A stretch of DNA of 64,000 nt. Origin: Convolutriloba macropyga. Lineage: Eukaryota. How positions within the stretch are numbered: position 1 is the stretch's first letter; every line of letters begins with the position of its first letter. Below are positions 21,465-62,733 of this stretch, one piece after another. The notes beneath the pieces are model-generated. The model ran no database searches, was not told where the DNA came from, and saw only the letters and a list, made by a program, of their open reading frames with translations. The stretch spans positions 54,126,001-54,190,000 of the forward strand of contig NC_134476.1 in the NCBI RefSeq assembly GCF_964194025.1, written 5' to 3'. The position numbers were made by a program, and so were the translations under genes.

Positions 21465-21769
21465 GAAAAACAATTTCATATCAACTTTTTACTCTTTTTT
21501 TAAGCTAACAATGATGAGGTTGAGGAGGCTCATTTGATGTGAAAATGACCCCCGATAGAAAAGTGATCGACAGACCCGGAGGCCTAAAATTTGAAACCTT
21601 TAACTAAACTAAATGTGACTAATTTTCTAATTTTGTCTTTCGCTTTGTAAACCCTCTTCATAAATTTATTTAGTGGGGGGGGGGGGGGGAGTGCAGCGTG
21701 ATAACTAAATGGTTCTCCTAAATTTTGCTATCGTTTTAGTGTCTCAAATGAACTAAGTTGAATTGCACA

Positions 21770-22229
21770 ATGCTTTCGGCCAGAGGAGAAGACGCTGTCC
21801 GTTATGTGACTTTCAACCAGGACCACTCAGCGCTTTGTGTTGGATGCAATTCCGGGTTCAAATTGTTTTCTCTGAGCAACATTGAGAAGCTCGACGAAAC
21901 ATTTTACGAAGGAACTCTTACTAACGTTGTCATAGTAGAACGTCTTTACCTTTCGAGTTTGGTTGTAACTGTCAGCCAAAACACACCCAGACGTTTGAGT
22001 CTCTGTCACTTTAAAAAAGGGACTGAAATATGCAATTACTCTTATCCGAACAGAGTATTATCCGTGAAACTAAACAGGAAAAGATTAGTCGTGTGCTTAG
22101 TTGACAGCTTATATATTCACAATATTAAAGATATGAAAGTTGTGCACACAATAAAGGAGACTCCAGATAACCCAAGAGGTGTGTGCACTCTGTGTTCGTC
22201 AGATGACTGTGGCTACCTTGCTTATCCGG
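21770..22229 (+). CDS. WIPI2: WIPI1/2 (Atg18) PROPPIN, coding exon 1
   Basis: [49 protein letters not shown] and YLAYPG match WIPI/Atg18. Donor G|gtaaga at 22230, phase 1. Confidence 0.95.
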
Positions 22230-22574
22230 GTAAGATTTCCTCTGCTTAACAAGTTCTGACCCTTGTTTTGTCTTGATATAGTGAACTGTAACGGCAAATC
22301 ACTTTGGGTTGTTGTAAGTGAAGGCGCACGAGGGACAAAACACTGAATCAGTCGACAGTACTTATGTTATATCTGTTCTGTTATATAGTACTTTCTGGTT
22401 CTGTTACCAGGTTGTTCTATCAAAATTTTTATGTAAAAAAGGAATATAAGGAGTCCTGTCACTGAAACCTGTCACTGAGACGACGGATTACAAGACAGAG
22501 ACAACAATCGCCCGAAAACAGTGGACTCACAATCACTATTCAAAACTCCTGAAAAGTTTTAGCTGCTTACTCTT

Positions 22575-22866: not shown

Positions 22867-22934
22867 CTGCCTATTAAGTTATTCATCAACAATCCGTTAA
22901 GACAAATCAAAATCTTTTGCATGTGCTAGCCAAG

Positions 22935-23831
22935 ATGTCCTCAAGAGTTATCACGTGCCAATCTTGCAATCACAAGATTGCAAAGAAGGAAGCAAAATTC
23001 TCATGTGCCTACTGCAGCAAAGCAATGCACATGACACCCGACTGCACAGGCTTCGAACAGTCCAGTATTGAAGTCCTTGTCAAGTTAGAAGCAAATCTGC
23101 TTCACATCTGTAACGAATGCAGTGAAAATAAGACACATAAGTCCATCTTAAAACCTGCTGAACAGTCGAAATTGGAAGACGATCTAACAGACCTCCGAGA
23201 ACAAATGAAAAAGTTCCAGCAAATCATTGAAAACTCAAATGCAATGATCGAAAATGTAAAGAAAGACTTGACCGAATTAAAGTCAACTGCTCCCAAGAGT
23301 TATGCACAAGCTGTTGGAAAACTGCCCGGTAGCACAATTCGCGACGTGTCAAATGCAAACAACATTCCTGGTCTGGGAATTCGAATAAGAGGTATACCTG
23401 AGAGTAGAACCAAAACACCAGACGAGCGTATGCATTCCGACATCGAATCGGTTGAGCAAATCCTAGACTTCTTGAAAATCAAAGACAAACGCATGAGCAA
23501 AATTCATCGTCTCGGTAAATTTGACCCTGACAAAAAAGGGGCACGCACTATACTTGTTTGCATGGAAAACATCATAAGTAAAGACCTGATTCTGAAATCA
23601 GCTCACCTGCTAAAGGCCTACGAACAACCAATCTTCATAAGTCCTGAGCTGTCTGCAACGGACGCGAAAAAAGAAAATGAATGTCTGCGCATTCGCCGTG
23701 ATCTCATTGACAATCATAATTACAATAGCAGGCAAGTTCGTATTAGAAATCTCAAGGTGGAGCATAAAGTTGGAGACAACTGGGTTGTCTTTGAAAACGC
23801 ACAAAAAGAGAATACTGGTATCAACTGGTGA
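22935..23831 (+). CDS. LINE ORF1: PHD finger, coiled coil and RRM-like domain
   Basis: CQSC...CAYC...H...C...CNEC zinc finger, heptad-rich middle, IRIRGIPE and HRLGK motifs. Confidence 0.9.
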   Translation: MSSRVITCQSCNHKIAKKEAKFSCAYCSKAMHMTPDCTGFEQSSIEVLVKLEANLLHICNECSENKTHKSILKPAEQSKLEDDLTDLREQMKKFQQIIENSNAMIENVKKDLTELKSTAPKSYAQAVGKLPGSTIRDVSNANNIPGLGIRIRGIPESRTKTPDERMHSDIESVEQILDFLKIKDKRMSKIHRLGKFDPDKKGARTILVCMENIISKDLILKSAHLLKAYEQPIFISPELSATDAKKENECLRIRRDLIDNHNYNSRQVRIRNLKVEHKVGDNWVVFENAQKENTGINW

Positions 23832-23846
23832 CTATACACACTCGAA

Positions 23847-30488: not shown

Positions 30489-32323
30489 CAGTGTAATAAC
30501 TTTTAATGCCCGATCGACACTGGAAAAACACTTCTGCATTAGACTACGAGTTTCTCACGCTCTTTTCTCGACACTGTTACTAAGTAAACAGTGGCGATAA
30601 AAGAGTGGTGATAAACTCGTAGTCTGGTAGTTGGGACATTTGAAGTTCCATGGAACCATCGCTTTCGAAACCATTAAAGTTAGAAGTGCTCGGTCCGGCT
30701 TATGTAGCACTAATACGTTTCTTTGCTTTAGCGGATCTTTTATACACTCTGAGAGCAGTATCACTCTTATGGCCCGAGATTTGTTTAACCTCGCTCTCAC
30801 TGTGGCCAGCGTCAAGGAGCGCTGTTACTGACGACGCTCTAATAGCATGTCCTGACCAAAGAAAATTTGTATCCCAACCAGCAGCTCGTGCAATTTCGGA
30901 CATAATTTTTCTCAAGAAATTGATTCCCATTGGCTGATTGTTGTACCACCGGTTGCCTCCTTTACCATTTATACGATTATAAAATCTTGATAATTTGACG
31001 GAATTTTGGACATGTAAAACTGGACAATTTGAACAGGACAGTTTTCTTGAAAAGTGGGATATATAAAAGCTTGTTTTGGCTGCGAGCCTTTAGTTCTAAT
31101 TCTACCACTATGATTTTTTGATATGCGTTCGTCATATCGAATGTAGCGTTCTTGTCCCATTCCAATATTTGTAATTTGTGGGTTATTTCCCCATGCTAGT
31201 TGATGCTGCTCTTTGCCTCCTCGCAAGCAGAAAAATTTGCCAATACACTGTCCATAATAATTGTTTTTTCCTGAGAGTTTTTTCCTAAAATTTTGCGTTG
31301 CCATAAATGTTTCTCCATATCTTCGCTCACTGACAAAAAAAATGTTTTTTTTACAATACTAGGAAAAAAAAATCAGTGGTGAGATCTGAAAGTTTTTTAC
31401 AAAATGAAAGAAACTTTTGGCCAAATAACGCACAAAAAACAACAGTTGTTTGTACATAATCCGTCCAAATATCTCTGGCAAAAAGAGCAGTTACAAAAGT
31501 AGAAAACAAATGGACAAATTAAACATAAAGAACAACAGTTGTTTGTGTTTAATTTGTCCAATTGGTTTCAGCTTCTGAAAATGCACTTTTTTTTTACCGA
31601 GCTCAATTACAGATGCAAAAAAAGTATTTCATTGTTTTCTGTTGCCAGAAAAACAATATCCCAATATCAGCTTGTCTTGGGTGCCCATTAAGACCCCTAG
31701 CTGATAAGTTTTTCATCCTCTTGTCAAGTGCGAGTTGGAAATTTGAGGTTTTTCAGAGTAGGAATTGCACCCCCTGAAGTTCATTGTGTGTGGATCAGTC
31801 ATAATTTGTGATTTCACAAACTTTTTCTCCCCTTTTTCACCAACCTCTTTCCCCACCCACCCATCTTCCCTTAAAAAAACAACCATGAGTTTATCAAAAA
31901 CTTTTTCCTTTTGATTGGTCCTTCAAATACATTTGAATTGTTGCTGCAATGTGGTACAAAGTTCTTGGTGAAAATTCGTCACCATTCTAGTTTTGACTTC
32001 ACTAATGAACATTTTCAAATAGTTATGTGTGGCTCCTGGAAAAGTATCAAAAATGCTATCCAAAGACACTTTCAAAAGTGTTTCATCAGTTGCAGTTTCG
32101 AGCCATTTATTCCAGAGTTTACACACCCATGAAAATATACGCAGGGAATTTTTGCTCAAAAAAGTCACTCATTTTGACTGTGTTCAATTTTGAAATGATC
32201 GCAACAGGGCTTGGTTAAAAAAAATTACCACACGGTTGATATCGCCCTCGAAGTTATCATAACACCTCGGCTTCGCCTCGGAGTTTGATAACTTCTCGGT
32301 GTCGATAACAACCGTGTGGTAAT
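30489..32323 (-). mobile_element. Decayed Crypton-type (DUF3504/ZMYM-KCTD1-like) tyrosine recombinase element with flanking hairpins
   Basis: Pieces in order on the minus strand: FISEVK / NGDEFSPRTLYHIAATIQMYL (~32000), LDKRMKNLSARG..RQAD (~31720), EKHLWQRKILG, FCLRGGKEQ, SKNHSG, CPV, then WY..QPMGIN..GHAIRASSVTALLDAG..ISGHKSDTALRVYKR with the catalytic R, HxxR, H and Y residues. Frameshifted. Confidence 0.85.
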
Positions 32324-34151: not shown

Positions 34152-35183
34152 ATGTTTGAGTTTCGACGTGGAGTAAAACGGTGTGTGACAATTTATTCTC
34201 TGGCGTTCAGCAACGATTCACTCCTTCTTGCCTGTTGCAGTAACACTGAAACTATCCACATATTCAAACTAGAATCAGCCTCAGCCAGCAGAGGCTACTC
34301 TAAATCAGTAGCTTCAAATGGACCTCACAGTGCGGCCTCAAATCCAAGTTTAGACGACAATTCAAATAGTCGGACATGGATAGGATATTTCGGTCAGGCA
34401 ATTCTGGACAGTGCTTCCTATTTACCAACAAATGTAGGGGAGATGTTTACTCAAGGAAGAGCAGCGTTTCAAGCCAGGATACCATTCTTTTCCGAAGATT
34501 CCACCTACTTTAATACGTGTGCTCTGACATGGATCAATAAAATTTTACGGCTTGTCGTTGCTAGCACCTCTGGTCAGCTTTACATGTATAACGTGGATCT
34601 ATCAGATTCAACAGGTGAATGTCCTCTGATAAGGCAGCATAAAATTGACGGCAGCACTGGCCTGGGTGTGGGAGGAAGTCGCAAATCGAATGGTTCCAAC
34701 AACAACATCTCAAGAGGTTCCAATTCAAGTCCGCTATCAGAAAACTCTAAAAGGGTTTCAGGTGCTTCTAATAGTCGATCGAACTCGGCCACATCGTTTG
34801 ACTATGCTGCTACTCAAAACAACGTTGTCACCACCGAAGACTCAGTGAGTCCTCTAGGTGGTGTTGACATCCCTCCATCTCCGATTGCAAGGTGGTCGGA
34901 GTTCGATGAAAGAGATCCAAAATTTGCTCCGAGTGGAGCACCGTTAGCATATCCGTACACAGCGCCTGTTGTGGGATCATTTGGCTCGTCATTGAATGAC
35001 AGGCAAGGATCATCACCAGGCAGTAATTCTGCCAATCAGGGAGGTGTAACCTATGCCGGTATGTTAGGAACGTCGCCTTCGGGTGACAGAAGTCTTGATG
35101 ATGTCTCTGCCCGGTTCAAAGGAGGCATCAAAATTGACGATGAAAACGAGTTTCCGCCTATGACTATGCATACGGATGATTGA
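34152..35183 (+). CDS. WIPI2: WIPI1/2 coding exon 3 (terminal); spliced product 557 aa
   Basis: tag|ATG acceptor. Contains the FRRG phosphoinositide-binding motif, SNTETIHIFKL, a Ser/Asn-rich tail and C-terminal EFPPM. Confidence 0.95.
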   Translation: MFEFRRGVKRCVTIYSLAFSNDSLLLACCSNTETIHIFKLESASASRGYSKSVASNGPHSAASNPSLDDNSNSRTWIGYFGQAILDSASYLPTNVGEMFTQGRAAFQARIPFFSEDSTYFNTCALTWINKILRLVVASTSGQLYMYNVDLSDSTGECPLIRQHKIDGSTGLGVGGSRKSNGSNNNISRGSNSSPLSENSKRVSGASNSRSNSATSFDYAATQNNVVTTEDSVSPLGGVDIPPSPIARWSEFDERDPKFAPSGAPLAYPYTAPVVGSFGSSLNDRQGSSPGSNSANQGGVTYAGMLGTSPSGDRSLDDVSARFKGGIKIDDENEFPPMTMHTDD

Positions 35184-48004: not shown

Positions 48005-50042
48005 GTATGCAATTTCACAATTTTTGGTAAACTTTTGGAGTCAATGGTGCTATGATTCCACCGGTCTGTGTGTGTTATTTATGTGGTTTTGTTCCACTTA
48101 GCTAGAGCTATATTGACGTTGTAATTGTTTTCCTTGCCGCGTGTCAAAAAATATGGAAATTGTATTTTGTTGAAGTTGTACCACGAACAGTGGCTGCTTT
48201 TTCCAAAAATGCTTTACCAGAATATTTTTTCTTTCTCTGGTTGAAACCAATTGTTCATTTCGGAAGATTTCACGCAACTTTTCGCTGCTTTGGTCCCATA
48301 GTTCAAAGTTAAACTACAACGTAAATACCCCTGAAAAAGTTTTGGCTAAGATTTTTTGATGAATGGGGATCCTTCTGCGTTATTCTGGAACCAAATAACA
48401 GCGCTGTTCTTGATAGATTTTTTGAAAAAAAAACATGGGCAGTTGGAACTTGGGTGTGTCAGTTGGGAAACATGGGCGGTTCTCGATTGCAGAATACTAC
48501 TTGTCAACAACCTTAATGCAATCTCTCAGAGTGCTAATCACTCGTGTTGGATTGCTATCGTTTAAAAAATGGTATTATCTCAGCTTATTTTATGGAGAGC
48601 TCATAGTTACTTAAACCATGTTTCTTCATTAAATCAATTGAGACGGAAAAAGTATCGTCATGTTTAAAACATATTCTTCCTTACCGTTCTAATTAGAAAG
48701 TTTCGATTTTATGATTTTGCTCATTCAGAGCGCCAACTCATTTTGAAAGCATTAAAAGCGCTAATTTGATTACGGGCCCTTGCGCAATTTTTTAGTTTTC
48801 AAGACAGTTAGAAAAAAAAACACGTATGAAAGCAAGTTTTTTCAAAATTTATTTTTAGAAAATTTATTGTAACGTGTCAATGGAACCTTTTGATAAAAAG
48901 AGCTGATAGTTTTCTAACGCATTTTGAATTCTTTTTAATTGCTCTCGAACGAATTTTAAACATGTTGGTCTTTTTTATGCAAATATTTTCTTGACCGTTT
49001 TAACTTTTCGGGAAAAGTGAATTTTACGCCGTTGACGGTTCATTTTGCGTGATCTAAGTTCTTCTCATTAACAAGTGTCAGCAGCTGAACTCGACTGGCG
49101 GCAGTTCGCTACTAAGAGTCAATTAAAAAGTGTGCCAAAATTTTTTTCACTTTAAGTTTTATGAGTGGTTATAGTGTTATCTAATAACCTCTAATGACGT
49201 CATTTGAAGCCCCCATTAGTGAATTTAGTTACTCCTCGCACCAGACTGAAGCAGGCTGCAATATATTTGAGCTCACACTATTTGTTCCAGAGCAATTGTC
49301 CGACGTTAGTGAAAAAAAGGTCCTTAACAAATAAAAAAAACATAGCAGGACAAGCCCTGAGATACAATGCAAAGGACTGAATGAGAAACTTAGAACTACT
49401 GCATCTGACAGCAGATCGATTGAACAATGCCAGGCAAAACGGCAAAGTTCCAAAATTAGAGTGAAATGAATGAGTTATTATTCCAATTAATTAGAATCGA
49501 CTGTACAAAAAATAGGTCAACACATACCTCCTCGCCTATCAAACCTTGGTTCCCTAAAAATGGTTTCGTTTTTTTTCTTTCACATAGCATTATTTTCGGC
49601 TTGATGTTACCTCAAATTTAAAGCCAACACAAATGAAACAGTTGCTCGAATAACTTGAGAAGCAAGACTTTTTATAGCACTCAACGATGTTCATTATTAG
49701 ATTCTTGTGCTCTAAGAGAAAGTTGAAAACTGGTGCAGACAGCTTTGTGGGAACACTTGGACTTTCGAGTTGTTTTGAAAGAGTTCTGTTCATTTTAAAC
49801 TGCTTTTAGTTGGCGTGATTTTTTTTGTGCTATCCAAAAGTTCTTTTTTTTTGTTCAATTTTTTTGGTCGGCCATCAATCAGTGGTTCCGTGGCAACTTT
49901 TTTGAAACAATGTCTTACTGGGTTACAGGCGACCAGAAGGCTCATCGTTTTATCAGGGAAAATGGCAAGGAAGACAGTGTTCTTCATGCAGTGTCATTTT
50001 AGTTAGAATGTTAATGTGCAATTTGAGCTTGTGGCCTCTAAT

Positions 50043-50474
50043 TATACTCGCCGCTTAAATGGGAGTATACAAAGAGAGTTTAACTTTAAAGTTCTAAAGA
50101 CAAAAGGAATGGAATTAAAAATTTTATTATAAAAACAGTTAAGGCGGTACAGTATGAATAATGAGTTAAGCAATATCGATATCATATGTTTACTTTATCA
50201 ATCTATTGAGCAAGTGTGTGGTGACAATTGAAGAGAGGAATATCAGATGGCTAACTAAATTGGAATTGAAGTGAACAAATGGTTGAAGTGAACGATACTG
50301 AATAACTGAATAACTGGTTGATATAAAAACTAGCTTCCTATATATAGTCAGCAAAGTGGGAATTAATTTCCCATATTTTTAAAAGTGGGATAAAACATCC
50401 CATATTAGTTTTTGGGATAAAAGTTCCCATTTTATTTTTGGGATAAAAGTTCCCATTTTCTCATTTTCAGTACA
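50043..50474 (-). repeat. 3' LTR (TGTACT...AGTATA termini; AATAAA at 50128-50123)
   Basis: Identical to 61633-62064 except one substitution (50091 vs 61681). Terminal hairpin tatactc-N13-gagtata. Confidence 0.97.
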
Positions 50475-50618
50475 TCCAACCGGCGACTTAGCGGGTTTTG
50501 TTGTAACTAGCTGGATATACAAAGTTAGACATAAAAATTTAGATATAAAAATTTACAGACATGTTTAAAACAAAATTAAGAATAAGATGGTTTCTAGAAT
50601 AAGAATAAGTTTCTAGTT

Positions 50619-51236
50619 TTAGTTTCCTTCAAGTTGATTTATTCTGTTTTGCAAAAATTTTATTCGGTTCATTAGATTCGCGTTCTTCTTCTTCTCTCGT
50701 AAGAAGTTTTGCTCCAGTCCCAGCGTGTATGTGTCCCGCTCGTTGTTGAGGTCTGCGGTTATGAACTGGTAGGGGACTGTTAAGTTCTGTCGGTCGAGGG
50801 ATATATTCTTTAGTCGATATGTCTTTAATTTTGAGTTATAAGATTGGATCTTATAAATATTTCCCTCTGGTAGCACTCTGTATTGGAGGCCCCAGTCAAA
50901 GTTTGGGTGTCCTCTAAATTGCCTATTCCTCGTTCTTTCTTCGTTGAATTTCTGTTTTTCCAATCTCTGGCTCATGCTAAGGATTCGTGGCTGTATAGGG
51001 CAAATTGTAGCTGTGGGTTTCATGTGGGTGGCTGTCGGAGCAATCGTAACTTCTGTTAAATCCAATTTTTTTTCTCCTCTCCCGGTATTGATAGTGTGAA
51101 TACTCTTCCCTGGTGTAGTTCGTACTGGTTGTTGTTCTGGTGGTTCCTGTTGCTGGCCCATCAGTTCCTCGAAGGTATCGGGGAGAATGAAGTCATCTAG
51201 GTCTGGCATGTCATCGTCACCTTCGTATCCTAAATT
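50619..51236 (-). CDS. 3' accessory ORF / predicted exon 2 (acidic start, basic middle, leucine-zipper C-terminus)
   Basis: 196 aa ORF from the ATG at 51209, extendable by 9 codons to the acceptor ttatttctatttttag| at 51237 in phase 0. Confidence 0.75.
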   Translation of the reverse strand, partial: NLGYEGDDDMPDLDDFILPDTFEELMGQQQEPPEQQPVRTTPGKSIHTINTGRGEKKLDLTEVTIAPTATHMKPTATICPIQPRILSMSQRLEKQKFNEERTRNRQFRGHPNFDWGLQYRVLPEGNIYKIQSYNSKLKTYRLKNISLDRQNLTVPYQFITADLNNERDTYTLGLEQNFLREKKKNANLMNRIKFLQNRINQLEGN

Positions 51237-51359
51237 CTAAAAATAGAAATAACATAAATGTGTAGTATGGATAAGATATTTATTTTCTATATATATAACA
51301 AACTAATTATTTGTGTTTTTATTTATAGTCGTGTATATTTTTTAAAGTCATTATTGCTT

Positions 51360-53570
51360 TTATACGGGAGAAATTGGATTATCTCCATTTTCTTCTATTG
51401 CAACATTGTTTTCATGTCTTTCATTTCTAATTGCACTATATAATGGGTGCGGAATATGTGGATATAGATTAAAGTGTGTTTCTTTCATTTCAGTTACTAA
51501 ATGTTCAGCATCATCTGGCTGTTTCTCATTGGTTGTCTCATTTTTAAAGATAGAAGTCATAATAGAAGTGAACAGAATATTGTAAGTGGCAAATAAGATG
51601 ATTTTGCCAAAATTAACAGAAGCTCCTGTTATTTTATGTATTTGTAGGGCTTTTACAATTGTTACAACAATTTGAATAATAAATTTCAAGAAAAGAAAAG
51701 CGGCAAAATAAATTCCACATTGCTCTAAGATAAATTGTGTATAACCGAACATTTCTATATAGCGGTTATCAAAGAAATTAGGAGAAATAAAAGAGTCTAA
51801 GTAGACTGTTCTCATTGGATAGTTAAGATAAGTTCTATCCTCACTTTTAAAATTATCTTGAGAAACAACAAGTTCTTTAGAGAAAGTTTGTATAGCATCT
51901 TTCATTTCGTTATTGAATTTAATTCCGCGCCAGAATTTCTTTAATTCTTGATCAGTAAATAAATATATTTCATCACTATCCTGGAATTTGTATTTAGTTA
52001 ATCTCTGTGGAGCAATATTAGGTTCAAAAACAGAGGGTCCTTTGACTCTAGTTATACCCGGTGTTAATTCAACCCAGGAGTTATCATCTTCAATATCTAA
52101 TTGAAATAAATTATCGTGTTTATCTACACATGATCGTTCTTCAGCGCTAGTGTATGTCTTTCTAGTAATTGGATCAACGAAATGTATTTTATTTTGATAC
52201 ATTATTGGAATTCTATTATAACATTTCTCCATAATTTGTAAGGGTGAAAAATACTGTGGGCAATGATATAGCCATGCAACATTATCATTAGTCTCTAAGA
52301 ACATTGAGCGATTATTTGTTAGTAAGAATCCAGCCATACGTGGATTACTATGCGAATAGACTAAATTTGTTCTCTTTATAGCACGTTCTAACTCACAATC
52401 GGTTTTTATCATTTGTAAATCTAAAAGCTGTAGTCTTCTTATATTAGTATATTCGTAATAGTCAAATTTCGTTCCCATATGGGCTTCATAATTTATTCCT
52501 GAGTGCAAATCAATATTTGGCTCTCCATTTGTATATGAAGTTCGTTTTACGAGCAATTTGCCTCTTGTGCTATTTACATAAGTATTTTTTTACAACATTT
52601 GGAATTGGTTTTTTGCCTTTCCTGTATCCATATCGAATCCTCCTTCATAATGTATATATAATGAGCTATAAGGAGTAGGATAAACTATTTTGTTTGAGTC
52701 GCAAATTGACTGTGGATTATTATAAATCTGAAAAATGAAAGTATTTCGTGGCCCTTTAAATGGTTGCGCACGTCTAATAACAGCTTCTGTTGATTCAGGT
52801 TCAGTTTCATATTCTCTTACTATATAATATTTTCTATCTATTTGTATCATTTTTACTGGAGCTGTGTGTAATTCTTCTATTATACAATTTTCTCTATTTT
52901 CCCATGTATATGCATAAGGATCAGTTGATCCACTGTCACAGCCATTTTTGTTTAGGCTACAAGGCAGAGGAATATTATAGTGGTTATTTACCGTTCCATC
53001 TTCTAAATTTACTAGTAATTTAATATCTTGCATATATGTCTCGTAAGTATCGTGGTAGATCCATCCTGTTTCTGTGCACTCATTACTGTATTTATCACTA
53101 ACGTCGCCCTTATTTATAACTGTTTGTTTCTTTACATTTTTTGTAAATGGAACTTTGTTAGTGTTAATAGTCGCGGAGCCTGTTTTCTTAGCTTCGAGAC
53201 ATTGCTCGGCTGTTAATTTAATATCTGAGCTAATAGTTGCTTGTGTAGCGGATAAACCACTATCGTCAAAAGTATCACAATACCACTTTAGGCGTTGATG
53301 TGTAGCTTTACACATAGTTGCTTCTAATTTAGTCTTATAATTGCGCTGCATAATAGTAGCAGTTGCCTCACTTACTTTTATTTTCTCAGTATCGATATCG
53401 CATGGAGCTATTTTGTTTAATGAGTACATTTTATTAGAATCTATTTTAGAACAATCAAAGTGTCCTACTTTTACTTTCTTTAGAGTATTTTTAAATTCGG
53501 AGTCTGCGTTGGCTCCATTTATTGAAAGTAGTGTGGAAATTATTAGAGGTACAATTACAGGTACTCTCAT
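51360..53570 (-). CDS. env: Env-like class III fusion glycoprotein (chuvirus/Monjiviricetes-like), ~736 codons, with one in-frame TAA at 52592-52590
   Basis: Signal peptide MRVPVIVPLIISTLLSINGANA. Cys pattern FDC, CKATHQRLKWYC, LPCSLNKNGC..YTW, CELER, LYHCP, CYNRIPI, FVDPITR. C-terminal TM. The two track ORFs are in the same frame, separated by a single stop. Confidence 0.85.
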
Positions 53571-53618
53571 ACTGAAAGGGTAGAAATTTGAACAAAGAAG
53601 AATTATAAATTTACTTAC

Positions 53619-53702
53619 TTCGATTATTTCGTCCAACACTTCTGGATCGGGCTCGGGGAACTGAAAGCTGGTTAGCTCAACTGTTTCTTGTTCTGAATTC
53701 AT
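53619..53702 (-). CDS. Predicted exon 1 of the spliced accessory protein (28 acidic codons)
   Basis: ATG at 53702, MNSEQETVELTSFQFPEPDPEVLDEIIE, then the consensus donor GAA|GTAAGT in phase 0. Confidence 0.6.
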
Positions 53703-53703
53703 C

Positions 53704-53922
53704 TTAATATTCAATTATGTTAGTGAAGGTATGAATGCTTGAAGGGATTTTAAATTCGAAGTTGAATTTTAAGGCAGCGAATAGACTTGATGTGTCTTTC
53801 ACTAGAAAAGTCTCTGTGGTTAAATCGGAAAAGAGGAAAGTAGCGTAAATAACGCTTAAGTCGTTAGCAGGAAAGAAAGTGGATTTCAATTTGGCTAGTT
53901 TGCCGTTGATTCTGATAAGCAT
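53704..53922 (-). CDS. 72 aa ORF just downstream of the internal promoter (uORF or small accessory protein)
   Basis: First ATG after the predicted TSS. Its TAA is followed after one base by the ATG at 53702. No recognisable motif. Confidence 0.35.
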   Translation of the reverse strand: MLIRINGKLAKLKSTFFPANDLSVIYATFLFSDLTTETFLVKDTSSLFAALKFNFEFKIPSSIHTFTNIIEY

Positions 53923-53949
53923 TTAAATGCTGACTAAGAGATGAAGAAG

Positions 53950-54240
53950 GAAGAATGATTTTTTGTGTTTTTGCTCCCTTATTTATAGTGTGCAAAATGG
54001 GCTGTTTCATCTCACTTTTAGAAATATGTCTCAAATATTCCCATTTTTAGTGACGGTTTCTGTCTTTTTATTGGCTGGGAAGATATTCCCATTTTTTAGA
54101 CCAGTTTGTGCAATTTCATTGGTTTTCATAGTTTGGGAATGTTTATCCCATTTTTCTATTCAAGTTTTCATTTTTTATTGGTTTTTAGAGTTGGAGTTTC
54201 TATTCTCCTTTTATTTATAAATGATAGAATTTGATTGGCT
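53950..54240 (-). promoter_or_regulatory. Predicted internal promoter between pol and env
   Basis: TATAAATAAG starts at 53987 and Inr TCATTC has its A at 53956 (-31 spacing). Four CCAAT boxes (~54070, 54118, 54177, 54234). TGGGA-N6/7-TCCCA at 54076 and 54134 plus two degenerate copies. Confidence 0.7.
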
Positions 54241-54276
54241 AATAATAAAATCTTTTTGTTCTGTGTATTTAAATTT

Positions 54277-57200
54277 TTATTTCTTTTTATCCTTTAAAGC
54301 GTCCCATGGAATAGGATCATTAAATAACTTTGTAGCAACTGCTTGTCTACCAGACCTTCTGGGTTCAGTAGGATATAATTTTTCATTTACTGATTTATTA
54401 GCTAGTGGGGTTGTAGGTTGTGTAGTAATGACTTGTGAACTACTCTGAAAGTTAAAGGGACTTATATCATGTGCTAATGGTTGGGGGGAATGAGGTGTTT
54501 GTGGATAACTAAGAGGTCCTCTTGGATATGGGGTAGATATATGCTGTGGCCTAAATGACTTACTAGGCGAAGTAACTTGCTGTTGTGTGTTAAATAATGT
54601 TCGGAGTCCTAATGTGTCAATGCCTGAATCAATCGGAGGGTTATTGCTACTACATCTAGTAGTAGTATTAGTAGAAGTAGTAGTAGTGGGTCTACTATTT
54701 GGGAGTTGCGGCGGCGTTTCAACATTGTTGAATACTGGCCAAGGCATATAGTGCATAAAATTACTAGGTTGGGTAGTATTAAATTTGTTTATGTAATGCC
54801 TGTTATAGTTATCATAGAATTGTTCGGGTTCAGCATATACAGTAGTATAATCGGCAATTAAGGGTTGTATTTCTCTTTCCTTCGGAAAATATTCTACTAT
54901 ATGGTTTCTATGCACTACTCTTTTTTGTTGCGTCTCGTCTCCTTGTATTTCATATGTTGTATTAGTTATATGTTTTGTAACAGTGTATGGACCGGACCGA
55001 AGTGATTGTAGCTTCTTAGATATAAGCAAGCTCTTAGAATGATTTTCTAGTAGGACTTTGCTTCCAATGCTGATTGGTCGTCCGAGCTTAAATCTATTCC
55101 TATATTCATGGGCTTTATTTGTAACTTGACGACAACGAGTATAAGTATTGCAATATATGTTCTTAAAATCTGTTTCGCGTTGTAGTACAGTATTGGATAA
55201 TCTATTTTGTAGTAGATTATCTACCTTTTCGTTTTTACACGAATTTTTACAATGTGTATGCGACGGCAAGTCCTGACAATATTGAGATATACAATTCTTC
55301 TTATTATCCCGCAGCAATCCTAGTCTAAGTGAAATAGGTATTTGTGGCTTTATTCCAAATATAATCTCGTACGGCGTATAACCAGTACTATAATTCACTG
55401 CTGTATTATGCGCAAATGCAAATTTGTCAACAAATTTTGCCCAATTGTTTCCAGTAGTATTTAGAAAGTGTCTAAGATAGTTTGTAAGGTGCTTATTTTG
55501 AATTTCTACTTTCCCGTTAGTCCAAGGGGAATATGCTGTTCGTGGCCTCAGTGTAATTCCAAGCTCAAAAGTCCAGTTTACAAAATCACTACTCATAAAA
55601 GCAGTACCGTTATCATGTACTATGTGCTGAGGTATTCCGAAGATAGTTATAAATTTCTCCATTTGTTTTATAGTCTCGTCAGAAGTAGCGGACTTAACAG
55701 CATATACTTGTACATATCTAGAGAATGAATCTACAACTACAAGACAGTAGTGTTTGCCATTACTAGAAGGCCGAAAAGGTCCTTTATGGTCTATATGTAT
55801 AGTGTGGAAGGGAGTTGTCTCCAATTCGCCCCATTGTTGTAAGGGTGCTTCGTTTAAATCGTGTCTTTTACTTTTATTCTTTTGACAATCTAAACAATCG
55901 TGGATTAACATAGTAACCCATTTGTACATTCCGGGCCAGTAAAAGAATCTGGATATATTGTTTAATGTACTAGCATCGCCACGGTGGCCACTCATAGGGT
56001 TACTATGTGCTAGCTCGAAGCACTTTAGAAATAGTGAGATAGGAATACATATCTTTAGTTCGAAGGAACCATTCTCATTAGGTTTATTGTAACATAGTAG
56101 TTTATAACTCTCATCTAGTAATAATAACTTATATATACTCTTGTAAGCTTTTAATGCTTTACATTGTCGAGTCATATAGTAGTGTTCAGGTTCTTTGCCT
56201 GATTCTATCCATTTCCGTACTATATGTAATACAGGGTCTTTATTTTGTTCTTGTAGTATAGTGTCAATATCTAGTTGTGCCTTTTTAGCAAATTCAGTTA
56301 ACTTCGTTAGCAAATCAGAGCAATCTGATTTGACATTCTCATTATGTAGTGCTGTTGACTCTATAATAGTATAATGCTTTGTACGCTCCTTGTAGATTTC
56401 TTTTGCCTTCTCTAGTGCATGTATTAATGTTGGATCGACTAAATTATCTATAACATCACTAAATTCGTCGTCATTATATCCTGAGTCGTCCAATTCTACA
56501 TAGTTTACTTCTTCTTGTATTTCACTATATGTATTGTCCGATTGTTTACTATCTGTGAGCTTAACTATTTGATTTATATTTTTGCCAAATTTGAAATAGT
56601 CGGCTACATTATGTATAGCATTACAAGAGTCTGTAAATCCTTCGGGTGCGTCAGAAATACTAAAATCATTATCCGATATATTCATTACTTTTCTTGTTCC
56701 ACCTTGTACTTGTGCTAGTATAGGATAAGAATCGTTAGACGAGTTTGTTTTATCCTCTTTGTGCAATACAGAGTAAGAGACTGGCTTTAAATCCGAAGTG
56801 TAGAAATTTATATCCTTAGGTATTGTTTTATGTTCAATCTGAAATTTCTTCGCTTCCTCTATTGGGACTTGTCGACTCAGTAAATCAGGAAATGCTAAGT
56901 TCTTGCCTTCGGTGTATATAATTTTTAAGTTCTGGAATTTAGTTAGGACGACTTGATATTTGAAAAATCTGTGCGAAAGTTGTCCGCGCCTAGACCATAA
57001 AAATAGTATTGGCCTGTGATCGCAAAAGAGGTATATGGGAAATGGCGATCCTATTAAATAGAATTCATACGTTTGTAGTGCGGATATAATTCCGCATAAT
57101 TCTCTATGCTGTGGGGACATTTTCTGTTCAGCTTTGTCGAATACTCTAGAGTTCGCTGATACAATTCTTTTTCTATCAGGGAATTGTTGTATAAGTATAC

Positions 57201-59940
57201 AACCAGTGCCTAAGTTAGACGAGTCAGCATGTATATGAAATGGGTAGTTCGCATTTGGAATTGCTAGTGATATATCATGTACGAACTTTTCTTTTAGTAT
57301 ATTGAATACTTTCTCGTGTTCTTCTTGCCATTTGAAATTTACATCGCCTCTTGTTAAATCGTACAAAGGCTTAGCATCTATATGAAAATTTATCACATAG
57401 TTCGAGTAGAATCCCATTGCTCCTAATACGCTAAGAACGTCAGTTTTTGATTCGGGAGTCTTTAAGTTTCTAATGTCGTCAATACGCGATATAACTGGGG
57501 AAAGTGTATTTTCTGATATAACGTGTCCGAGAAATTTTACTTTTCGTAAGAAGAACATTGTTTTATCCGGTGCGGCTTTTAAGTTAGCCTTTCTTAATAG
57601 AGCATGATATTCTTTTATTATATTGAACATTTCCTCTTTAGTATTAGATTGTAGTAGTGTATCGTCAATATATGTAATAGCCTTCTTTTCTTTTATAAGA
57701 GGTCCGAATGCATAGCGCATTAATTTACTAAAGAAATTGGGTAGTGGTTTTAATCCGTAGAAGCCGACTTGATAAGTATACTGTCTTCCTCCTATTATAA
57801 ATCCTGTTAACTTTTGTGTTTCGGGCGTTAGCGGCACTTGATGATAAGCACAAGAAAGGTCGCTGCTTGTAAAATATGATCCATTCACTCGGGTTATTAG
57901 GACTTGTAGTGGTTCTAACGGCCAACTTGAATTACTTGTGTCAGTAATAGAGTTTAGATAACGAGCATCTATTACTAGTTTGACGTAATCCTTCTTAGGA
58001 AGGATTATGATCGGGTTAACGAACCAGCTATTCATATCGTCATGTTCATCTAGTTCTCTTATAATGCCTGCTTGTATTAACTCGTCCATCAGTAATTCGA
58101 GTTTATCCCTTAAATGGAAGGGTACTTTACTAGGTCTTTGCTTTTTGAATTCTGCATTTTTTATTAGGGATATATTAAATTGTTGTTTAGTACGGCCAAT
58201 GTCATATTTATGATGTGAATATACATCGTTGTCTGTAAGCAGTATATCTGCAAGTCGAAAGAATTCGTTCTCAGTCAAGTCGGTTTGTGTAAAATCGAAT
58301 TTTTGTAGGAATTCCATTTTATTGAAGTGAGTATTTTGTCCAGCATGTACACTTGTAGTAAATTTATCTATTAATTCTTTTACTTGATATTTTGAGCGGA
58401 ATATTGGAAATTGTTCTCTTGATTTGGGTTGGCATATCCTTTTTGCCTCTTTAGAAAAGTCAGTGGCAATATCATCCTCGCTTTTACATTTCTCCACTAG
58501 TTCTCCTGCGGATAGCTCCATTATTTCGGCGATATGCTCGTCAGTGAGAGGACGATTTTCTATATTGTTTATTAACTGTAATTCTTTGCCACTAATGTAT
58601 ACATAAATAGTTATTCCCGTGTGCTTAAAGTGTTCTTCTAGTTCTTTAGCTATTCTTTTCCACAATCTGGGGTCTCCGCCACATGCTATCTTAGGCATAG
58701 CAATACACCTTATTCCGTCAAGCATAAGTGTCTTTTGTAGTTCACAAAATACTGAACAAGTTTTACTTGCTTCGTATGGGGGAGAGTTATAATATTCCTT
58801 CATTACAAGACTATATATAATCTGCTGACTATACTCATCTTGAAAATGTATTAGTTCGTGGTCTACCTTATTCTCCGATCCTATACTTTTAAAGTATTGT
58901 AGAATATTCCTCTTTAAGTTGGGGTATCTTTTAATAAGGGAGGCAGTAAAGCCTTTGTCTAATACTAAGTCTCTAGATATAGTATGGATAATAGGCATAT
59001 TAGCGTCGAATATCGAATGTTCGTCAAAGTTAATATACCTAATACACTCAGCAGTTAGGTCAGTGGATTCGGATATAGTATTTGTAGTTGTATTTAGCAT
59101 AAAACAACTATCAAGCTCTTCGCATTTATTTATAACAGAATAAGTAAATTCGTTGCAGTCACGAATACTGTATTTTTGTGTATTGTTTGTAATATCACAT
59201 ATAGTAAATCCAATTATCCCTTTATTTAGTGTAACTTGATGATTTTTGTGGTTTTCGATGAGCAGGGGAATTTGTTTTTCGTTCTTAGTACAAATAGTAT
59301 TTATAAAGCACAACTCGGTTTTTACTGTAGTCCTATTAGGTACAAAAGAAGTGCCTTTCGGAAATATATCTTGCTCACTACACTTGTGCTTGTAGAGAAA
59401 TGTAGACTTAGGTGGGATATATAGAGGCTGGTGTATTATCACTGCGTTCAATTTAGAGACTTGGGGATATTCCTTTTCATTATTTAGCGAGCCATAACTA
59501 AGAACTCCTTTATCACTAGTCTTCAGTTTTACTGCTGGAATATCAAAGTATAATGCTTTAAGAAATGTATGACAAAAATCTACTCCTAATAAATTAGAAG
59601 TTTTCTCCTCAGTAACCCATACTCTATGATTTGCTTTATATTTCCCGTCTGTATCAAAGTATGAAGTTAGTATAGTGTAGCCTATCATGCGTATTTCGGA
59701 ACCGTTATAGGTTCTTGTTTTATTGCCTGAAGTCTGGATATTTATTTGTTGTCCCAATTGGTTAAGCTCAAGAAATGTTGGGTAATTTATTATAGTGCAA
59801 GTTGATCCTGGGTCGATCATGAATTCTATTTCTAAGCCACTATGTTTTTTATTGTCTCCGGTAGCAAAGTGATATAAGTTCAAGAAAATTCGGGCTTTGG
59901 GATTTGATGTGATATTCTTATTTTTCGGAGACCGTATTAG
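54277..59940 (-). CDS. pol: Pol via -1 frameshift: protease, macrodomain, RT, RNase H, integrase
   Basis: IDPGS protease site, TARG1-like macrodomain at ~59043-58597, RT YIDD at 57672-57661, RNase H ADSS/RELCG/DHRP, integrase HHCC, D-D-E and GPY. The frame is open up to the slippery site. Confidence 0.96.
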   Translation of the reverse strand, partial: LIRSPKNKNITSNPKARIFLNLYHFATGDNKKHSGLEIEFMIDPGSTCTIINYPTFLELNQLGQQINIQTSGNKTRTYNGSEIRMIGYTILTSYFDTDGKYKANHRVWVTEEKTSNLLGVDFCHTFLKALYFDIPAVKLKTSDKGVLSYGSLNNEKEYPQVSKLNAVIIHQPLYIPPKSTFLYKHKCSEQDIFPKGTSFVPNRTTVKTELCFINTICTKNEKQIPLLIENHKNHQVTLNKGIIGFTICDITNNTQKYSIRDCNEFTYSVINKCEELDSCFMLNTTTNTISESTDLTAECIRYINFDEHSIFDANMPIIHTISRDLVLDKGFTASLIKRYPNLKRNILQYFKSIGSENKVDHELIHFQDEYSQQIIYSLVMKEYYNSPPYEASKTCSVFCELQKTLMLDGIRCIAMPKIACGGDPRLWKRIAKELEEHFKHTGITIYVYISGKELQLINNIENRPLTDEHIAEIMELSAGELVEKCKSEDDIATDFSKEAKRICQPKSREQFPIFRSKYQVKELIDKFTTSVHAGQNTHFNKMEFLQKFDFTQTDLTENEFFRLADILLTDNDVYSHHKYDIGRTKQQFNISLIKNAEFKKQRPSKVPFHLRDKLELLMDELIQAGIIRELDEHDDMNSWFVNPIIILPKKDYVKLVIDARYLNSITDTSNSSWPLEPLQVLITRVNGSYFTSSDLSCAYHQVPLTPETQKLTGFIIGGRQYTYQVGFYGLKPLPNFFSKLMRYAFGPLIKEKKAITYIDDTLLQSNTKEEMFNIIKEYHALLRKANLKAAPDKTMFFLRKVKFLGHVISENTLSPVISRIDDIRNLKTPESKTDVLSVLGAMGFYSNYVINFHIDAKPLYDLTRGDVNFKWQEEHEKVFNILKEKFVHDISLAIPNANYPFHIHADSSNLGTGCILIQQFPDRKRIVSANSRVFDKAEQKMSPQHRELCGIISALQTYEFYLIGSPFPIYLFCDHRPILFLWSRRGQLSHRFFKYQVVLTKFQNLKIIYTEGKNLAFPDLLSRQVPIEEAKKFQIEHKTIPKDINFYTSDLKPVSYSVLHKEDKTNSSNDSYPILAQVQGGTRKVMNISDNDFSISDAPEGFTDSCNAIHNVADYFKFGKNINQIVKLTDSKQSDNTYSEIQEEVNYVELDDSGYNDDEFSDVIDNLVDPTLIHALEKAKEIYKERTKHYTIIESTALHNENVKSDCSDLLTKLTEFAKKAQLDIDTILQEQNKDPVLHIVRKWIESGKEPEHYYMTRQCKALKAYKSIYKLLLLDESYKLLCYNKPNENGSFELKICIPISLFLKCFELAHSNPMSGHRGDASTLNNISRFFYWPGMYKWVTMLIHDCLDCQKNKSKRHDLNEAPLQQWGELETTPFHTIHIDHKGPFRPSSNGKHYCLVVVDSFSRYVQVYAVKSATSDETIKQMEKFITIFGIPQHIVHDNGTAFMSSDFVNWTFELGITLRPRTAYSPWTNGKVEIQNKHLTNYLRHFLNTTGNNWAKFVDKFAFAHNTAVNYSTGYTPYEIIFGIKPQIPISLRLGLLRDNKKNCISQYCQDLPSHTHCKNSCKNEKVDNLLQNRLSNTVLQRETDFKNIYCNTYTRCRQVTNKAHEYRNRFKLGRPISIGSKVLLENHSKSLLISKKLQSLRSGPYTVTKHITNTTYEIQGDETQQKRVVHRNHIVEYFPKEREIQPLIADYTTVYAEPEQFYDNYNRHYINKFNTTQPSNFMHYMPWPVFNNVETPPQLPNSRPTTTTSTNTTTRCSSNNPPIDSGIDTLGLRTLFNTQQQVTSPSKSFRPQHISTPYPRGPLSYPQTPHSPQPLAHDISPFNFQSSSQVITTQPTTPLANKSVNEKLYPTEPRRSGRQAVATKLFNDPIPWDALKDKKK

Positions 59941-61226
59941 TTTAAAGGAAATAAATCTGAGATAGCGTCACAATAGTCAACATTGTTTTCTTCCTGTTGA
60001 ATCCAACCAACGTTGTTTTCATTTTGCGTATTATATGACTTTGTCTCTTGTTGTAAAGTAGGCCTTGTATTACTATGGGCTTGATTTCTATTGAATTGGC
60101 TGTTTTCACGCTCATAAAATTGTTTAGCAGCATATTCATTTTGCCGAAATGAATTTTCTCGGGGGAATCTTTGGTCATATTGCTTATTTTGGTTAAATCT
60201 ATTGCCGTACTTGTAGCCGCTCTGGTTATTATAAAAGGAATTTGGGTTTTGGGCTCTGTTATTATAACTATTATTCCTACTATTGTATTGGTTGTTATTC
60301 CAAGCACCTCGTCTGTAGTTATTACTAAATGTAGGCTTAGTCTCTTTTTGCTCTAATAATTCCTTTCTAATCTTTTGTACTTCGTCGTCTAACTTCTTTT
60401 TGTTACAGGTAGAAATAGAGTGTCCGTGGTTTCTACAATACTCACAGAACCTAGTATTATTGGCTCGTCCTTTTATATTCGGGTCTCTATTGAAGTTGCT
60501 TGTATTTTGTATAGCACTTACTTCATTACTTTTTATTAAGCTTGTAAGTTCCTTAATTTGTGTCTCTAAGGACGATATTTTGTCTGAAGGTTGTTTAGCC
60601 GAATTCTCATTAATAACTATACAAGTTAAATCTTGTGTTATCAGATGTTCTTTTAAATCGTCCCAACTTTCGTTAGGTTTCTTAATACGCCGTTCATGTG
60701 CTTTTCGCTTTAATGAGGGGGGTTGCAGTCCCCTTATAGCAAAATCTATATATTTCTGTTCTCTTTGTCTAGATTGTATTACTGCTTCTTGCGCTCGATC
60801 AGCATTAGCTACATTTGTTAAGTCTTCTGGCCAACCTTTATCAACCGCGTGCTTGACTCTATGAAAATAATTTTTTATTAATTCGCCTTCTTGTCTAGAA
60901 GCATTTTCTACTTCTAATCTATGCTTAAATTTATCACGACCGTCAGTAAATCTATCAAGAAAGTCATTTTTAATATCATTTAAGACTTTAGCCTCATCGA
61001 TAGTATTAAAACATTCTAAGGCTGTATCGGTTAAAAGGGACCCAAATAGAGATCTCTGTCTATTTTCATAACTCTTTTTCTTATCAGGATCAGTAGGAAC
61101 AACTCCTAACGAAAATTTTACTTTTTGATCAACAGAATTCCAAAAGTCAAGAGCACTCTGACTGGGATCGTTACCTGAAAAAGTAGTTAAAGACACATTA
61201 CTCAAAGAAATAGGAGCATCAGCCAT
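59937..61226 (-). CDS. gag: Gag (429 aa) with CCHC zinc knuckle and N/Q-rich tail
   Basis: CEYCRNHGHSISTC (CX2CX4HX4C). The ORF ends at the T TTA AAC TAA slippery site. Confidence 0.92.
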   Translation of the reverse strand: MADAPISLSNVSLTTFSGNDPSQSALDFWNSVDQKVKFSLGVVPTDPDKKKSYENRQRSLFGSLLTDTALECFNTIDEAKVLNDIKNDFLDRFTDGRDKFKHRLEVENASRQEGELIKNYFHRVKHAVDKGWPEDLTNVANADRAQEAVIQSRQREQKYIDFAIRGLQPPSLKRKAHERRIKKPNESWDDLKEHLITQDLTCIVINENSAKQPSDKISSLETQIKELTSLIKSNEVSAIQNTSNFNRDPNIKGRANNTRFCEYCRNHGHSISTCNKKKLDDEVQKIRKELLEQKETKPTFSNNYRRGAWNNNQYNSRNNSYNNRAQNPNSFYNNQSGYKYGNRFNQNKQYDQRFPRENSFRQNEYAAKQFYERENSQFNRNQAHSNTRPTLQQETKSYNTQNENNVGWIQQEENNVDYCDAISDLFPLN

Positions 61227-61611
61227 TTTTATTTAAAATACTTGGACGTTTGCCAAGTCTTTATTTTATCTAAGATAAATTAAGTGTTTCTGTAAGTACC
61301 AGAGACAACTTTAGATAGTCTAAGAATTACGTCCTCTGGGTACAATTTATTTTTATTTGAGAACTTAGAAATTTTTCTAAGTCTTTTATTAAAGTCAGAT
61401 AACTGACGAAAGATAGAATATTTTAGAAATAGCTGATACAAATTTAACATAGAATTTAAAAATAGTGTTAAGTTCGACTTACTTAAGTCAGAACATAGAA
61501 ATGAGACAACTTGGAAATTTTTCCTAAGTTTTTTGCCTCGCAACAGATTTTATTTAAGTTAAAGATTAAAGTTAAAGTCTTTAAAACATAGAATTTACTA
61601 ACCTTGAGTGA

Positions 61612-61629
61612 GCCTCACTGGTCGCACCA
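61612..61629 (-). other. Primer binding site TGGTGCGACCAGTGAGGC
   Basis: Begins with TGG, 3 nt after the 5' LTR. The complement GAGCCTCAC-N5-GCACCA looks like a tRNA 3' end (Ile-UAU/Met-like T-arm); identity is uncertain. Confidence 0.85.
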
Positions 61630-61632
61630 ATT

Positions 61633-62064
61633 TATACTCGCCGCTTAAATGGGAGTATACAAAGAGAGTTTAACTTTAAAATTCTAAAGACAAAAGGAAT
61701 GGAATTAAAAATTTTATTATAAAAACAGTTAAGGCGGTACAGTATGAATAATGAGTTAAGCAATATCGATATCATATGTTTACTTTATCAATCTATTGAG
61801 CAAGTGTGTGGTGACAATTGAAGAGAGGAATATCAGATGGCTAACTAAATTGGAATTGAAGTGAACAAATGGTTGAAGTGAACGATACTGAATAACTGAA
61901 TAACTGGTTGATATAAAAACTAGCTTCCTATATATAGTCAGCAAAGTGGGAATTAATTTCCCATATTTTTAAAAGTGGGATAAAACATCCCATATTAGTT
62001 TTTGGGATAAAAGTTCCCATTTTATTTTTGGGATAAAAGTTCCCATTTTCTCATTTTCAGTACA
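61633..62064 (-). promoter_or_regulatory. 5' LTR: four TGGGA-N7-TCCCA palindromes, TATATATAG at 61936 and Inr-like CCAGTT (+1 at 61905)
   Basis: Palindromes at 61947, 61976, 62003 and 62029. The TATA box is 31 nt upstream of the Inr A. Confidence 0.85.
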
Positions 62065-62733
62065 TAATAATTGCTTCCTGAGGTCAATAATCGTAGTTTC
62101 TGGTTGGTTTACTCCTGTACACGCGAGTGCACTCGGAACTCATAAATAAGTTCGAAAGAAGGCAATATTTGGTTCTCAGTTGTTGCAAATGGATTTGTGT
62201 GATGCGTGACACGGTTATTTACCATGTTCAGTTTCATGAGACGATGACTGGCCCAAGGGGGATTTTTGTTCCGGTGACTCTAATTTATGTACAAACGCTA
62301 CCTTCGTTGAGCTTTAACTATTAAATTTTCTGTCACAATTTGTAAATGATTTGTGACAATTTAGTATTGCCAGTTATGATTGGAAGACTGAATTTTTGTG
62401 CTCTTTATGTCTGCATGGGGCTTTGTTACAATTAGTTTAAATTAAAATTGTGCTAATGCTGCCCTTCAGCATTTTATGTGTCCCAAAGTTGGAGTTTGTA
62501 TTTTAATAGTAAAGATTTGAATCCATTTTCAGAGGATTTCTGCTTGTTTGATAGCCAATGAAACGAGATTTGATTGCCGAAAATTATGTTGCCTCCGAAA
62601 ATAACTTATTATTGCAGCAACTAAAACCAATTGTGACGCTTTATGCAAATTTTAGATAAATTGTATGCGGATAATTTTGTTTCATCTGCATTTTCTGACT
62701 ATAAACATCCAAGAAGGCGTTGTTTTTTTGCAG

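Follow-up and report, generated by a model that had tools for sequence, protein, structure and literature searches.

The stretch of DNA analysed here (the window, 64 kb) is from the marine acoel Convolutriloba macropyga, and the whole of the finding is contained within a single long terminal repeat (LTR) retroelement at 50043-62064 on the minus strand. A palindromic sequence, TGGGA-N7-TCCCA (the dyad), is a cis-element common to two promoters of this retroelement, one in the U3 region of the LTR and the other in the spacer between pol and env, and its occurrence is sharply non-random. The dyads are likely to be a binding element shared by both promoters for one dimeric factor. The retroelement also carries a spliced gene for a 233-amino acid (aa) accessory protein, and we propose that this protein binds the dyads directly and activates transcription, a reading to which we attach a probability of about 0.48. 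The motif and the accessory protein family are both well supported; the link between them is a good hypothesis that is directly testable.

A dyad element concentrated in one retroelement

The arrays of dyads are as follows.
61947..62045, unstranded: U3 array of four exact TGGGAW-N5-WTCCCA dyads, starting at 61947, 61976, 62003 and 62029
50357..50455, unstranded: copy of the four-dyad array in the 3′ LTR, starting at 50357, 50386, 50413 and 50439
53998..54150, unstranded: internal array in the pol-env spacer, with an exact N7 dyad at 54134, an exact N6 dyad at 54076 and degenerate N7 dyads at 54027 and 53998

An earlier note on this DNA had placed the arrays at these positions, and a rescan recovered every one of them. 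All nine exact matches to TGGGA-N7-TCCCA in the window lie inside the element (four in each U3 copy and one in the spacer). The mean expected by chance is 0.05 per window, and none of 100 shuffles reached nine, so the motif is not equally frequent in background sequence, an outcome for which the note had allowed. It had also described four copies in U3 with an invariant spacer of 7 nt. The four exact N7 dyads are there, but the two distal ones have identical spacers and thus look like a tandem duplication; this leaves about three independent sites rather than four, and the array of the 3′ LTR is a copy.

In the internal array the degenerate dyads at 53998 and 54027 have two and three mismatches respectively, and that at 54076 is the only exact N6 dyad in the window. 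One exact N7 dyad arose within the 562-nt spacer in a fraction of 0.0002 of 20,000 dinucleotide shuffles, and two dyads with spacers of N5-9 in none of the 20,000. A matrix built from three LTR sites was scored on the 63,111 N7 positions outside the LTRs. It ranked 54134 first, 53998 second and 54027 nineteenth, and when spacers of 6-8 were allowed 54076 was fourth of 189,333. At those spacers a match in pol coding sequence (57036, N8, score 18.6) scores above two of the internal sites, which marks the noise ceiling of the matrix.

The half-site is better given as TGGGAW, which is found in 13 of the 16 half-sites (TGGGAA in eight and TGGGAT in five), usually after a run of A or T. TGGGAW occurs at 18.5 per kb in the LTR and 8.9 in the spacer, compared with 0.6-1.1 in host DNA and coding regions. 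No N7 dyad with zero or one mismatch was found in the ~52 kb of flanking host DNA, which is a small sample. We note that the window also contains three near-identical tandem units of ~4.3 kb each at about 800-13600. Every unit contains a pair of N6 dyads with one mismatch, spaced by 45 nt (5400, 5445 and copies); this is about the chance level.

Both half-site forms could be taken to favour a dimeric or multi-finger protein of the host, whether Ikaros/hunchback-like, ZNF143-like, an unknown acoel factor or CSL as monomers. It would drive both promoters in one cell type, leaving the accessory protein with another role. TGGGAA is the published consensus of Ikaros, TCCC is shared by ZNF143, and one Ikaros probe, TGGGA-N6-TCCC, is a dyad resembling the site at 54076 (PMC4157847). 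The Tor elements, moreover, are expressed in a tissue-specific manner from internal sequences, and the sections consulted mention no transactivator (PMC4402516). Against such a factor stands the lack of the dyad in the small sample of host DNA, and a literature search found nothing establishing the presence of Ikaros in acoels. CSL/RBPJ, which the earlier note had offered as an alternative, is unlikely as a cooperative pair. Its paired sites are described as requiring 15-17 bp (PMC7685452), but in these arrays the gap measures 5 (or 4 at the N6 site), the paired-site geometry is found in neither array, and the GTGGGAA core occurs in just one of the 16 half-sites. An Ikaros-type protein is thus a more serious rival than CSL. 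Overall we regard control by a host factor as less likely than control by the accessory protein, although it deserves to be weighed.

Dyads of the opposite polarity are bound by EBF and STAT. TCCCA-Nk-TGGGA pairs occur here only as linkers of 9, 10 and 12 nt between sites, and a reading of the EBF/STAT type was therefore dropped.

Two predicted promoters with the same geometry

Each array lies upstream of a TATA box.
61929..61936, minus strand: LTR TATA box TATATATA, 10 nt past the proximal dyad, with an initiator (Inr)-like A at 61905 (+31) and a second at 61897 (+39); predicted start
53980..53987, minus strand: internal TATA box TATAAATA, 10 nt past the proximal dyad, with Inr TCATTC and its A at 53956 (+31); predicted start

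The arrangement reported earlier, a dyad array 5′ to a TATA box with an Inr 31 nt further on in both places, is thus found at 61936/61905 and 53987/53956, and the one motif common to both promoters is set in the same geometry in each. TATAWAW occurs 22 times in the element, and an Inr follows at 28-33 nt in four cases, i.e. both LTR copies, the internal site and one position in pol (56812). Both promoters have the order site, 12 nt, site, 10 nt, TATA, Inr at +31, with identical linker lengths, and the site-to-TATA distances are 19 and 48 nt in the LTR and internal promoter alike. The two exact internal dyads are further upstream, 96.5 and 155 nt from the TATA box.

When a stretch of 64 nt that runs from the second LTR site and takes in the TATA box was compared with all sequence outside the LTRs on both strands, the best match was the internal promoter, in exact TATA register. 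The two are identical at 39 of 64 positions without gaps, compared with 33 of 64 at the next, unrelated position. Identity at non-motif positions is 17/36, a value reached at 2% of window positions (shuffle p 0.04). The suggestion that the surroundings of the two arrays were not otherwise homologous is therefore right only in part, given the equal linker lengths and the shared non-motif positions. Within the proximal pair of sites 15 of 20 half-site positions are kept between the LTR and internal promoter but just 4 of 14 spacer positions, which points to selection acting on the half-sites. From the sequence comparison we infer that the internal promoter either descends from the U3 promoter as an old copy, or has been held to the same geometry.

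The first of these possibilities might be taken further, such that the internal promoter is simply a relic, an old U3 duplicate with decaying sites, and the U3 array grew by slippage, with no need for a common factor. The identical linker lengths and the 17/36 non-motif identity would agree with this, as would the degeneracy of the proximal internal sites and the near-tandem duplication of two LTR sites. However, two exact dyads persist upstream at unrelated distances, and a pure relic is very unlikely because the half-sites have been selectively retained. We note that common origin and function of the two promoters are compatible.

A spliced accessory protein that shares its start with Env

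The gene for the accessory protein has two coding exons.
53619..53702, minus strand: coding exon 1, 28 aa with nine D/E and no K/R, the common start of Env and the accessory protein; donor GTAAGT from 53618
50619..51236, minus strand: coding exon 2, 205 aa, with the acceptor AG ending at 51237; acidic stretch, basic helix, SH3/Tudor-like barrel and coiled coil

The 233-aa spliced protein of the earlier note is borne out by RefSeq models of that length from Convolutriloba macropyga (four accessions, three sequences), which match exon 1 at 28/28 and exon 2 at 204-205/205 residues. It is therefore real as a gene model. Of seven relatives of env at 40-50% identity, five begin with an acidic leader of 17-27 aa followed by VS or VN and then a hydrophobic stretch; the remaining two are without that N-terminal end. 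VS or VN after the leader is the peptide trace of a GTAAGT or GTAAAT donor, and its presence in divergent env genes makes the shared-start splice appear to be a feature of the clade. The length of the longest contig coincides between protein clusters, for instance at 310971 in the accessory, env and Pol clusters, and at 192010 in one divergent env cluster and one divergent accessory cluster. There is a hint here that other families also carry env and an accessory ORF (open reading frame) together.

The layout of the gene resembles that of HERV-K Rec, a protein that takes its first exon from the start of Env and has its target at the 3′ end of the RNA (PMC12724133). Every transcript carries U3 at its 3′ end, and the intron must be retained in env RNA. 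This would suit dyads that fold as hairpins in RNA, with the accessory protein acting as a Rev/Rex/Rec-like export factor for intron-retaining RNAs. However, pairing is predicted at 0.01-0.16 for the four U3 stems and at 0.0 for the degenerate internal sites, where the changes are not compensated; the N6 site alone folds well (0.85-0.95). A search of Rfam gave no matches, and the fixed distance to the TATA box would be left unexplained. RNA export is consequently the least probable of the explanations considered.

Predicted fold and dimerization of the accessory protein

Sixteen close relatives of the accessory protein were found, with 22 profile matches at E≤0.001 among 1.84 billion representatives, and the family reaches down to ~25% identity. 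Positions Q, Y, Y, Y and VP are near-invariant across nine divergent members. The first 63 residues include 21 D/E and no K/R, and the core is basic with an isoelectric point of about 10. Modelling from 12 close sequences gave a predicted local distance difference test (pLDDT) score of 40.3. For the trimmed core with 26 sequences the pLDDT was 87.9, with a predicted template modelling score of 0.60, giving a helix, a small β-barrel and a second helix of 36 residues. Structural matches to the barrel include Tudor, KOW, PWWP and chromo domains, with Z of 5-6 (best 6.0; none reached 8) and a root-mean-square deviation of 2-3 Å over ~50-58 residues. On the basis of the model the fold class is likely to be an SH3/Tudor-like small barrel. 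Foldseek returned no match at E≤0.001 in the PDB or among viral models, and the ESM Atlas gave no usable match for the protein of the window, and unnamed clusters at ≤0.78 for one relative.

Two copies are predicted to form a parallel coiled-coil homodimer via the C-terminal helix, with a score of 0.36; the best of three controls scored 0.00. At least 78% of contacts agree between runs, with a partner pLDDT of at least 54. Among solved homodimers, 21 of 30 from microbes and 17 of 29 from eukaryotes attain the mark that was used, whereas none of the 23 and 30 single chains, respectively, does so. The modelling supports dimerization. The earlier note had spoken of the element's own zipper protein. 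The predicted coiled-coil homodimer agrees with that description, but this is not a classical basic leucine zipper (bZIP). A β-barrel sits between the basic helix and the coiled coil, the half-sites are 7 nt apart rather than abutting, and a bZIP_2 match was found in one of 19 members at E 0.5. A likeness by eye between the barrel and the C-terminal barrel of integrase is unsupported, since the accessory profile matched none of the Gag, Pol and Env proteins compared with it, nor the other frames of the window.

The structural neighbours of the barrel are mostly chromatin or transcription-elongation modules. They could therefore be taken to suggest a two-part switch like that of Tax, in which a host factor reads the dyad while the accessory protein is tethered to that factor, or to chromatin via the Tudor-like barrel, as a co-activator or anti-silencer. 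An acidic N-terminus and a dimer would suit a co-activator, and the motif looks like a host one. Yet two separate interactions would be needed, the fold matches are generic (Z under 8), and the strongly basic core is what would be expected of direct contact with nucleic acid. We consider this arrangement improbable.

A proposed self-encoded activator acting at the dyads

We return to the proposal that the accessory protein itself binds the dyads. It draws on the motif, its geometry, the ORFs, the splice-site layout and the family conservation, all taken from sequence, together with the predicted fold and dimer. From these we infer promoter activity, binding, activation and the order of the two promoters. 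The internal TATA/Inr promoter would give a short transcript that encodes Env when unspliced and the 233-aa protein when spliced (53618 to 51237). The protein would pair through its C-terminal coiled coil, so that two basic helix/barrel heads could sit on the two TGGGAW half-sites, the centres of which are 12 bp apart, i.e. about one helical turn. The variable AT-rich spacer and this separation would suit a two-headed dimer bound in successive major grooves. The acidic N-terminus might recruit host machinery or keep chromatin open at a TATA box placed at a fixed distance. As the accessory protein accumulated it would raise the activity of its own promoter, and then switch on the LTR with its four perfect sites to give gag-pol and genomic RNA. 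A conserved, basic, dimer-forming protein with an acidic tail, made from one of the two promoters, would be the simplest partner for the dyads.

Several points weigh against this. The two proximal sites of the internal promoter are degenerate, so that the order of the feedback, and even its sign at the internal promoter, is not fixed by the sequence. Foamy virus Tas is described as binding its internal site at the higher affinity, a rule not obviously fitted here; by analogy, the four closely spaced perfect sites of U3 do fit the avidity half of it. The matches to the barrel are generic, and such a fold could equally read histones or RNA. Pfam has no family for the accessory protein of the window, and a sequence search of the PDB found nothing significant. 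The half-sites resemble host motifs (eight of 16 are TGGGAA, and the Ikaros probe is a similar dyad), and a coiled-coil dimer is an easy pass that is silent on DNA. Lastly, the acidic leader is also ahead of the signal peptide of Env, a second possible cause of its conservation.

The circuit may extend to the clade. We suggest, tentatively, that acoel env-bearing retrotransposons could have independently evolved the circuit of complex retroviruses, comprising an LTR-derived internal promoter, an activator that the element encodes itself by splicing, and a sequence-specific DNA-binding dimer of a new class with an SH3/Tudor-like barrel and coiled coil, each family having a private palindrome array as a bistable switch. 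A scan of GTDB gave five loci with pol fragments only, without the LTR or spacer of the clade, and the dyad was found in none of the five. One locus (L001, 3274 bp) is a clade pol fragment (50% identical in its best segment) in a bacterial metagenome-assembled genome record, and is probably animal contamination.

Anatomy and classification of the retroelement

The remaining features of the element are as follows.
61633..62064, minus strand: 5′ LTR, 432 bp, TG...TA ends, one mismatch to the 3′ LTR (50091)
50043..50474, minus strand: 3′ LTR, 432 bp
62065-62068 and 50039-50042: target-site duplication (TSD) TAAT, 4 bp
61612..61629, minus strand: probable primer-binding site, beginning TGG, 3 nt past the LTR
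59937..61226, minus strand: gag ORF, with a CCHC-like knuckle by eye
54277..59967, minus strand: pol ORF, overlapping gag; protease, TARG1-like macro domain, reverse transcriptase (RT), RNase H (RH) and integrase (IN)
51360..53702, minus strand: env, PF24664 Monjiviricetes-type fusion glycoprotein; an in-frame stop at 52590-52592 breaks this copy
50619..51236, minus strand: accessory ORF (coding exon 2), lying between env and the 3′ LTR

The difference of one base between the LTRs and the TAAT duplication indicate a recent insertion. In Pol, Pfam places RT at residues 696-817, RH at 880-1011 and IN at 1309-1481, with a weak protease match at 43-131. The RNase H is of the gypsy type, directly after RT, with D915, E956 and D983 all in place. 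Pfam gave no match to a second RNase H, and the ~290 aa between RH and IN (about 56050-56930, minus strand) match nothing there. With 432-bp LTRs, a 4-bp TSD and the Pol order protease-RT-RH-IN, the element is of the Ty3/gypsy (Metaviridae) type. LTR ends of TG...TA rather than TG...CA are atypical of Ty3/gypsy, although not disqualifying. The nearest Pol relatives are 43-99% identical across RT/RH, and all others 24-32% apart from one partial match at 49%; this drop marks a distinct clade.

A TARG1/OARD1-like macro domain (E 1e-5) lies between protease and RT at about 58600-58990 on the minus strand, and the stretch ahead of it is dUTPase-like by eye, with no database match. A Pfam scan of gag gave no family above its cut-off. 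There is no polypurine tract ahead of the 3′ LTR, the 15 nt before which are 60% purine; at 50475-50520 the first few bases of U3 are instead predicted to form a hairpin with sequence upstream of them, and plus-strand priming may be atypical. The stop in env is present despite LTRs that differ at only one base, and seven of the 14 further listed members of the env cluster are full length at 780 aa.

No other LTR element was found among the 15 other ORFs of the window that were scanned (two LINE-like elements and host genes). The LINE-like elements, at 17031-20402 and 22878-26675, have endonuclease and RT, and the second appears intact. Both are inside a host PROPPIN/WIPI gene with exons at 21752-22249 and 34152-35183. 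Tyrosine-recombinase and DUF3504 fragments at 30700-31358 are Crypton-like.

Relationship to known systems

A hallmark of the complex retroviruses of vertebrates is that they encode transcriptional activators with DNA sites of their own. Here a candidate protein, a candidate site and both target promoters are defined to the base. If the proposal is correct, the two-promoter switch of foamy viruses evolved convergently in a basal bilaterian, outside the true retroviruses. It would also add an uncharacterised DNA-binding fold, and a compact activator/operator pair without cognate sites in the host DNA examined. Even if a host factor were responsible, the arrays would answer the question remaining from Tor, the co-regulation of the env promoter and the LTR. 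A literature search that took in few subscription papers and no supplements turned up no account of this element, the motif or a gypsy-encoded transactivator. A survey of env-bearing gypsy elements has no occurrence of the terms 'internal promoter', 'accessory' or 'acoel' in its searchable text (PMC13524379).

Papillomavirus E2 and GAL4 are dimers that act on spaced palindromes near a TATA box, and plant VANDAL/VANC and CACTA TnpA are transposon proteins that act on repeated motifs of their own element. All have other folds and belong to other element classes, with no sequence or fold match seen here.

Membership of Troyka was rejected. Those elements are described with CG...CG termini, a 3-bp TSD and no env (PMC12440569), whereas the present element has TG...TA ends, a 4-bp TSD and env. 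The Odin and lokiretroviruses appear to differ in their defining features; their mark, shared with Retroviridae, is given as a dual RNase H, i.e. a tether and a new RH (PMC9040795).

An internal env promoter in a gypsy element is already a known kind. In Oikopleura Tor4b an env promoter has been mapped in the pol-env spacer by rapid amplification of cDNA ends (PMC4402516). Like the present element, Tor3b and Tor4b are of the Ty3/gypsy type and bear env, with a 4-5 bp TSD and an LTR-independent env promoter in the spacer, predicted here from the TATA box and Inr. They are likened by description only, and the sections consulted report no accessory ORF, splice, TATA box or shared motif, although the supplementary figures may show promoter motifs (PMC4402516). 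Like our protein, HERV-K Rec and MMTV Rem take their first exon from the start of Env, with most of env spliced out. Rec serves RNA export from an LTR-started transcript (PMC12724133), while the internal promoter and TATA-locked DNA dyads here point to transcription.

The closest comparison is with Tas/Bel1 of the foamy viruses. Tas is described as a dimer that binds both the LTR and the internal promoter with positive feedback (PMC3185757, PMC4929722). As in that system there are two promoters, with an accessory protein expressed from the internal one, a dimer with a separate activation part and a proposed feedback, all of them predicted in our case. Pfam links the accessory protein neither to Tas nor to another family, and its activation-like region is N-terminal, whereas that of BTas is C-terminal. 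The foamy internal promoter is inside env and drives only the accessory genes (tas/bet), while the promoter-like site here is in the pol-env spacer, upstream of the env start, and would drive env together with a spliced accessory RNA that has the env start. That position does not suit membership of the Spumaretrovirinae. The gypsy-type Pol and the acoel host make any likeness to the foamy viruses convergent.

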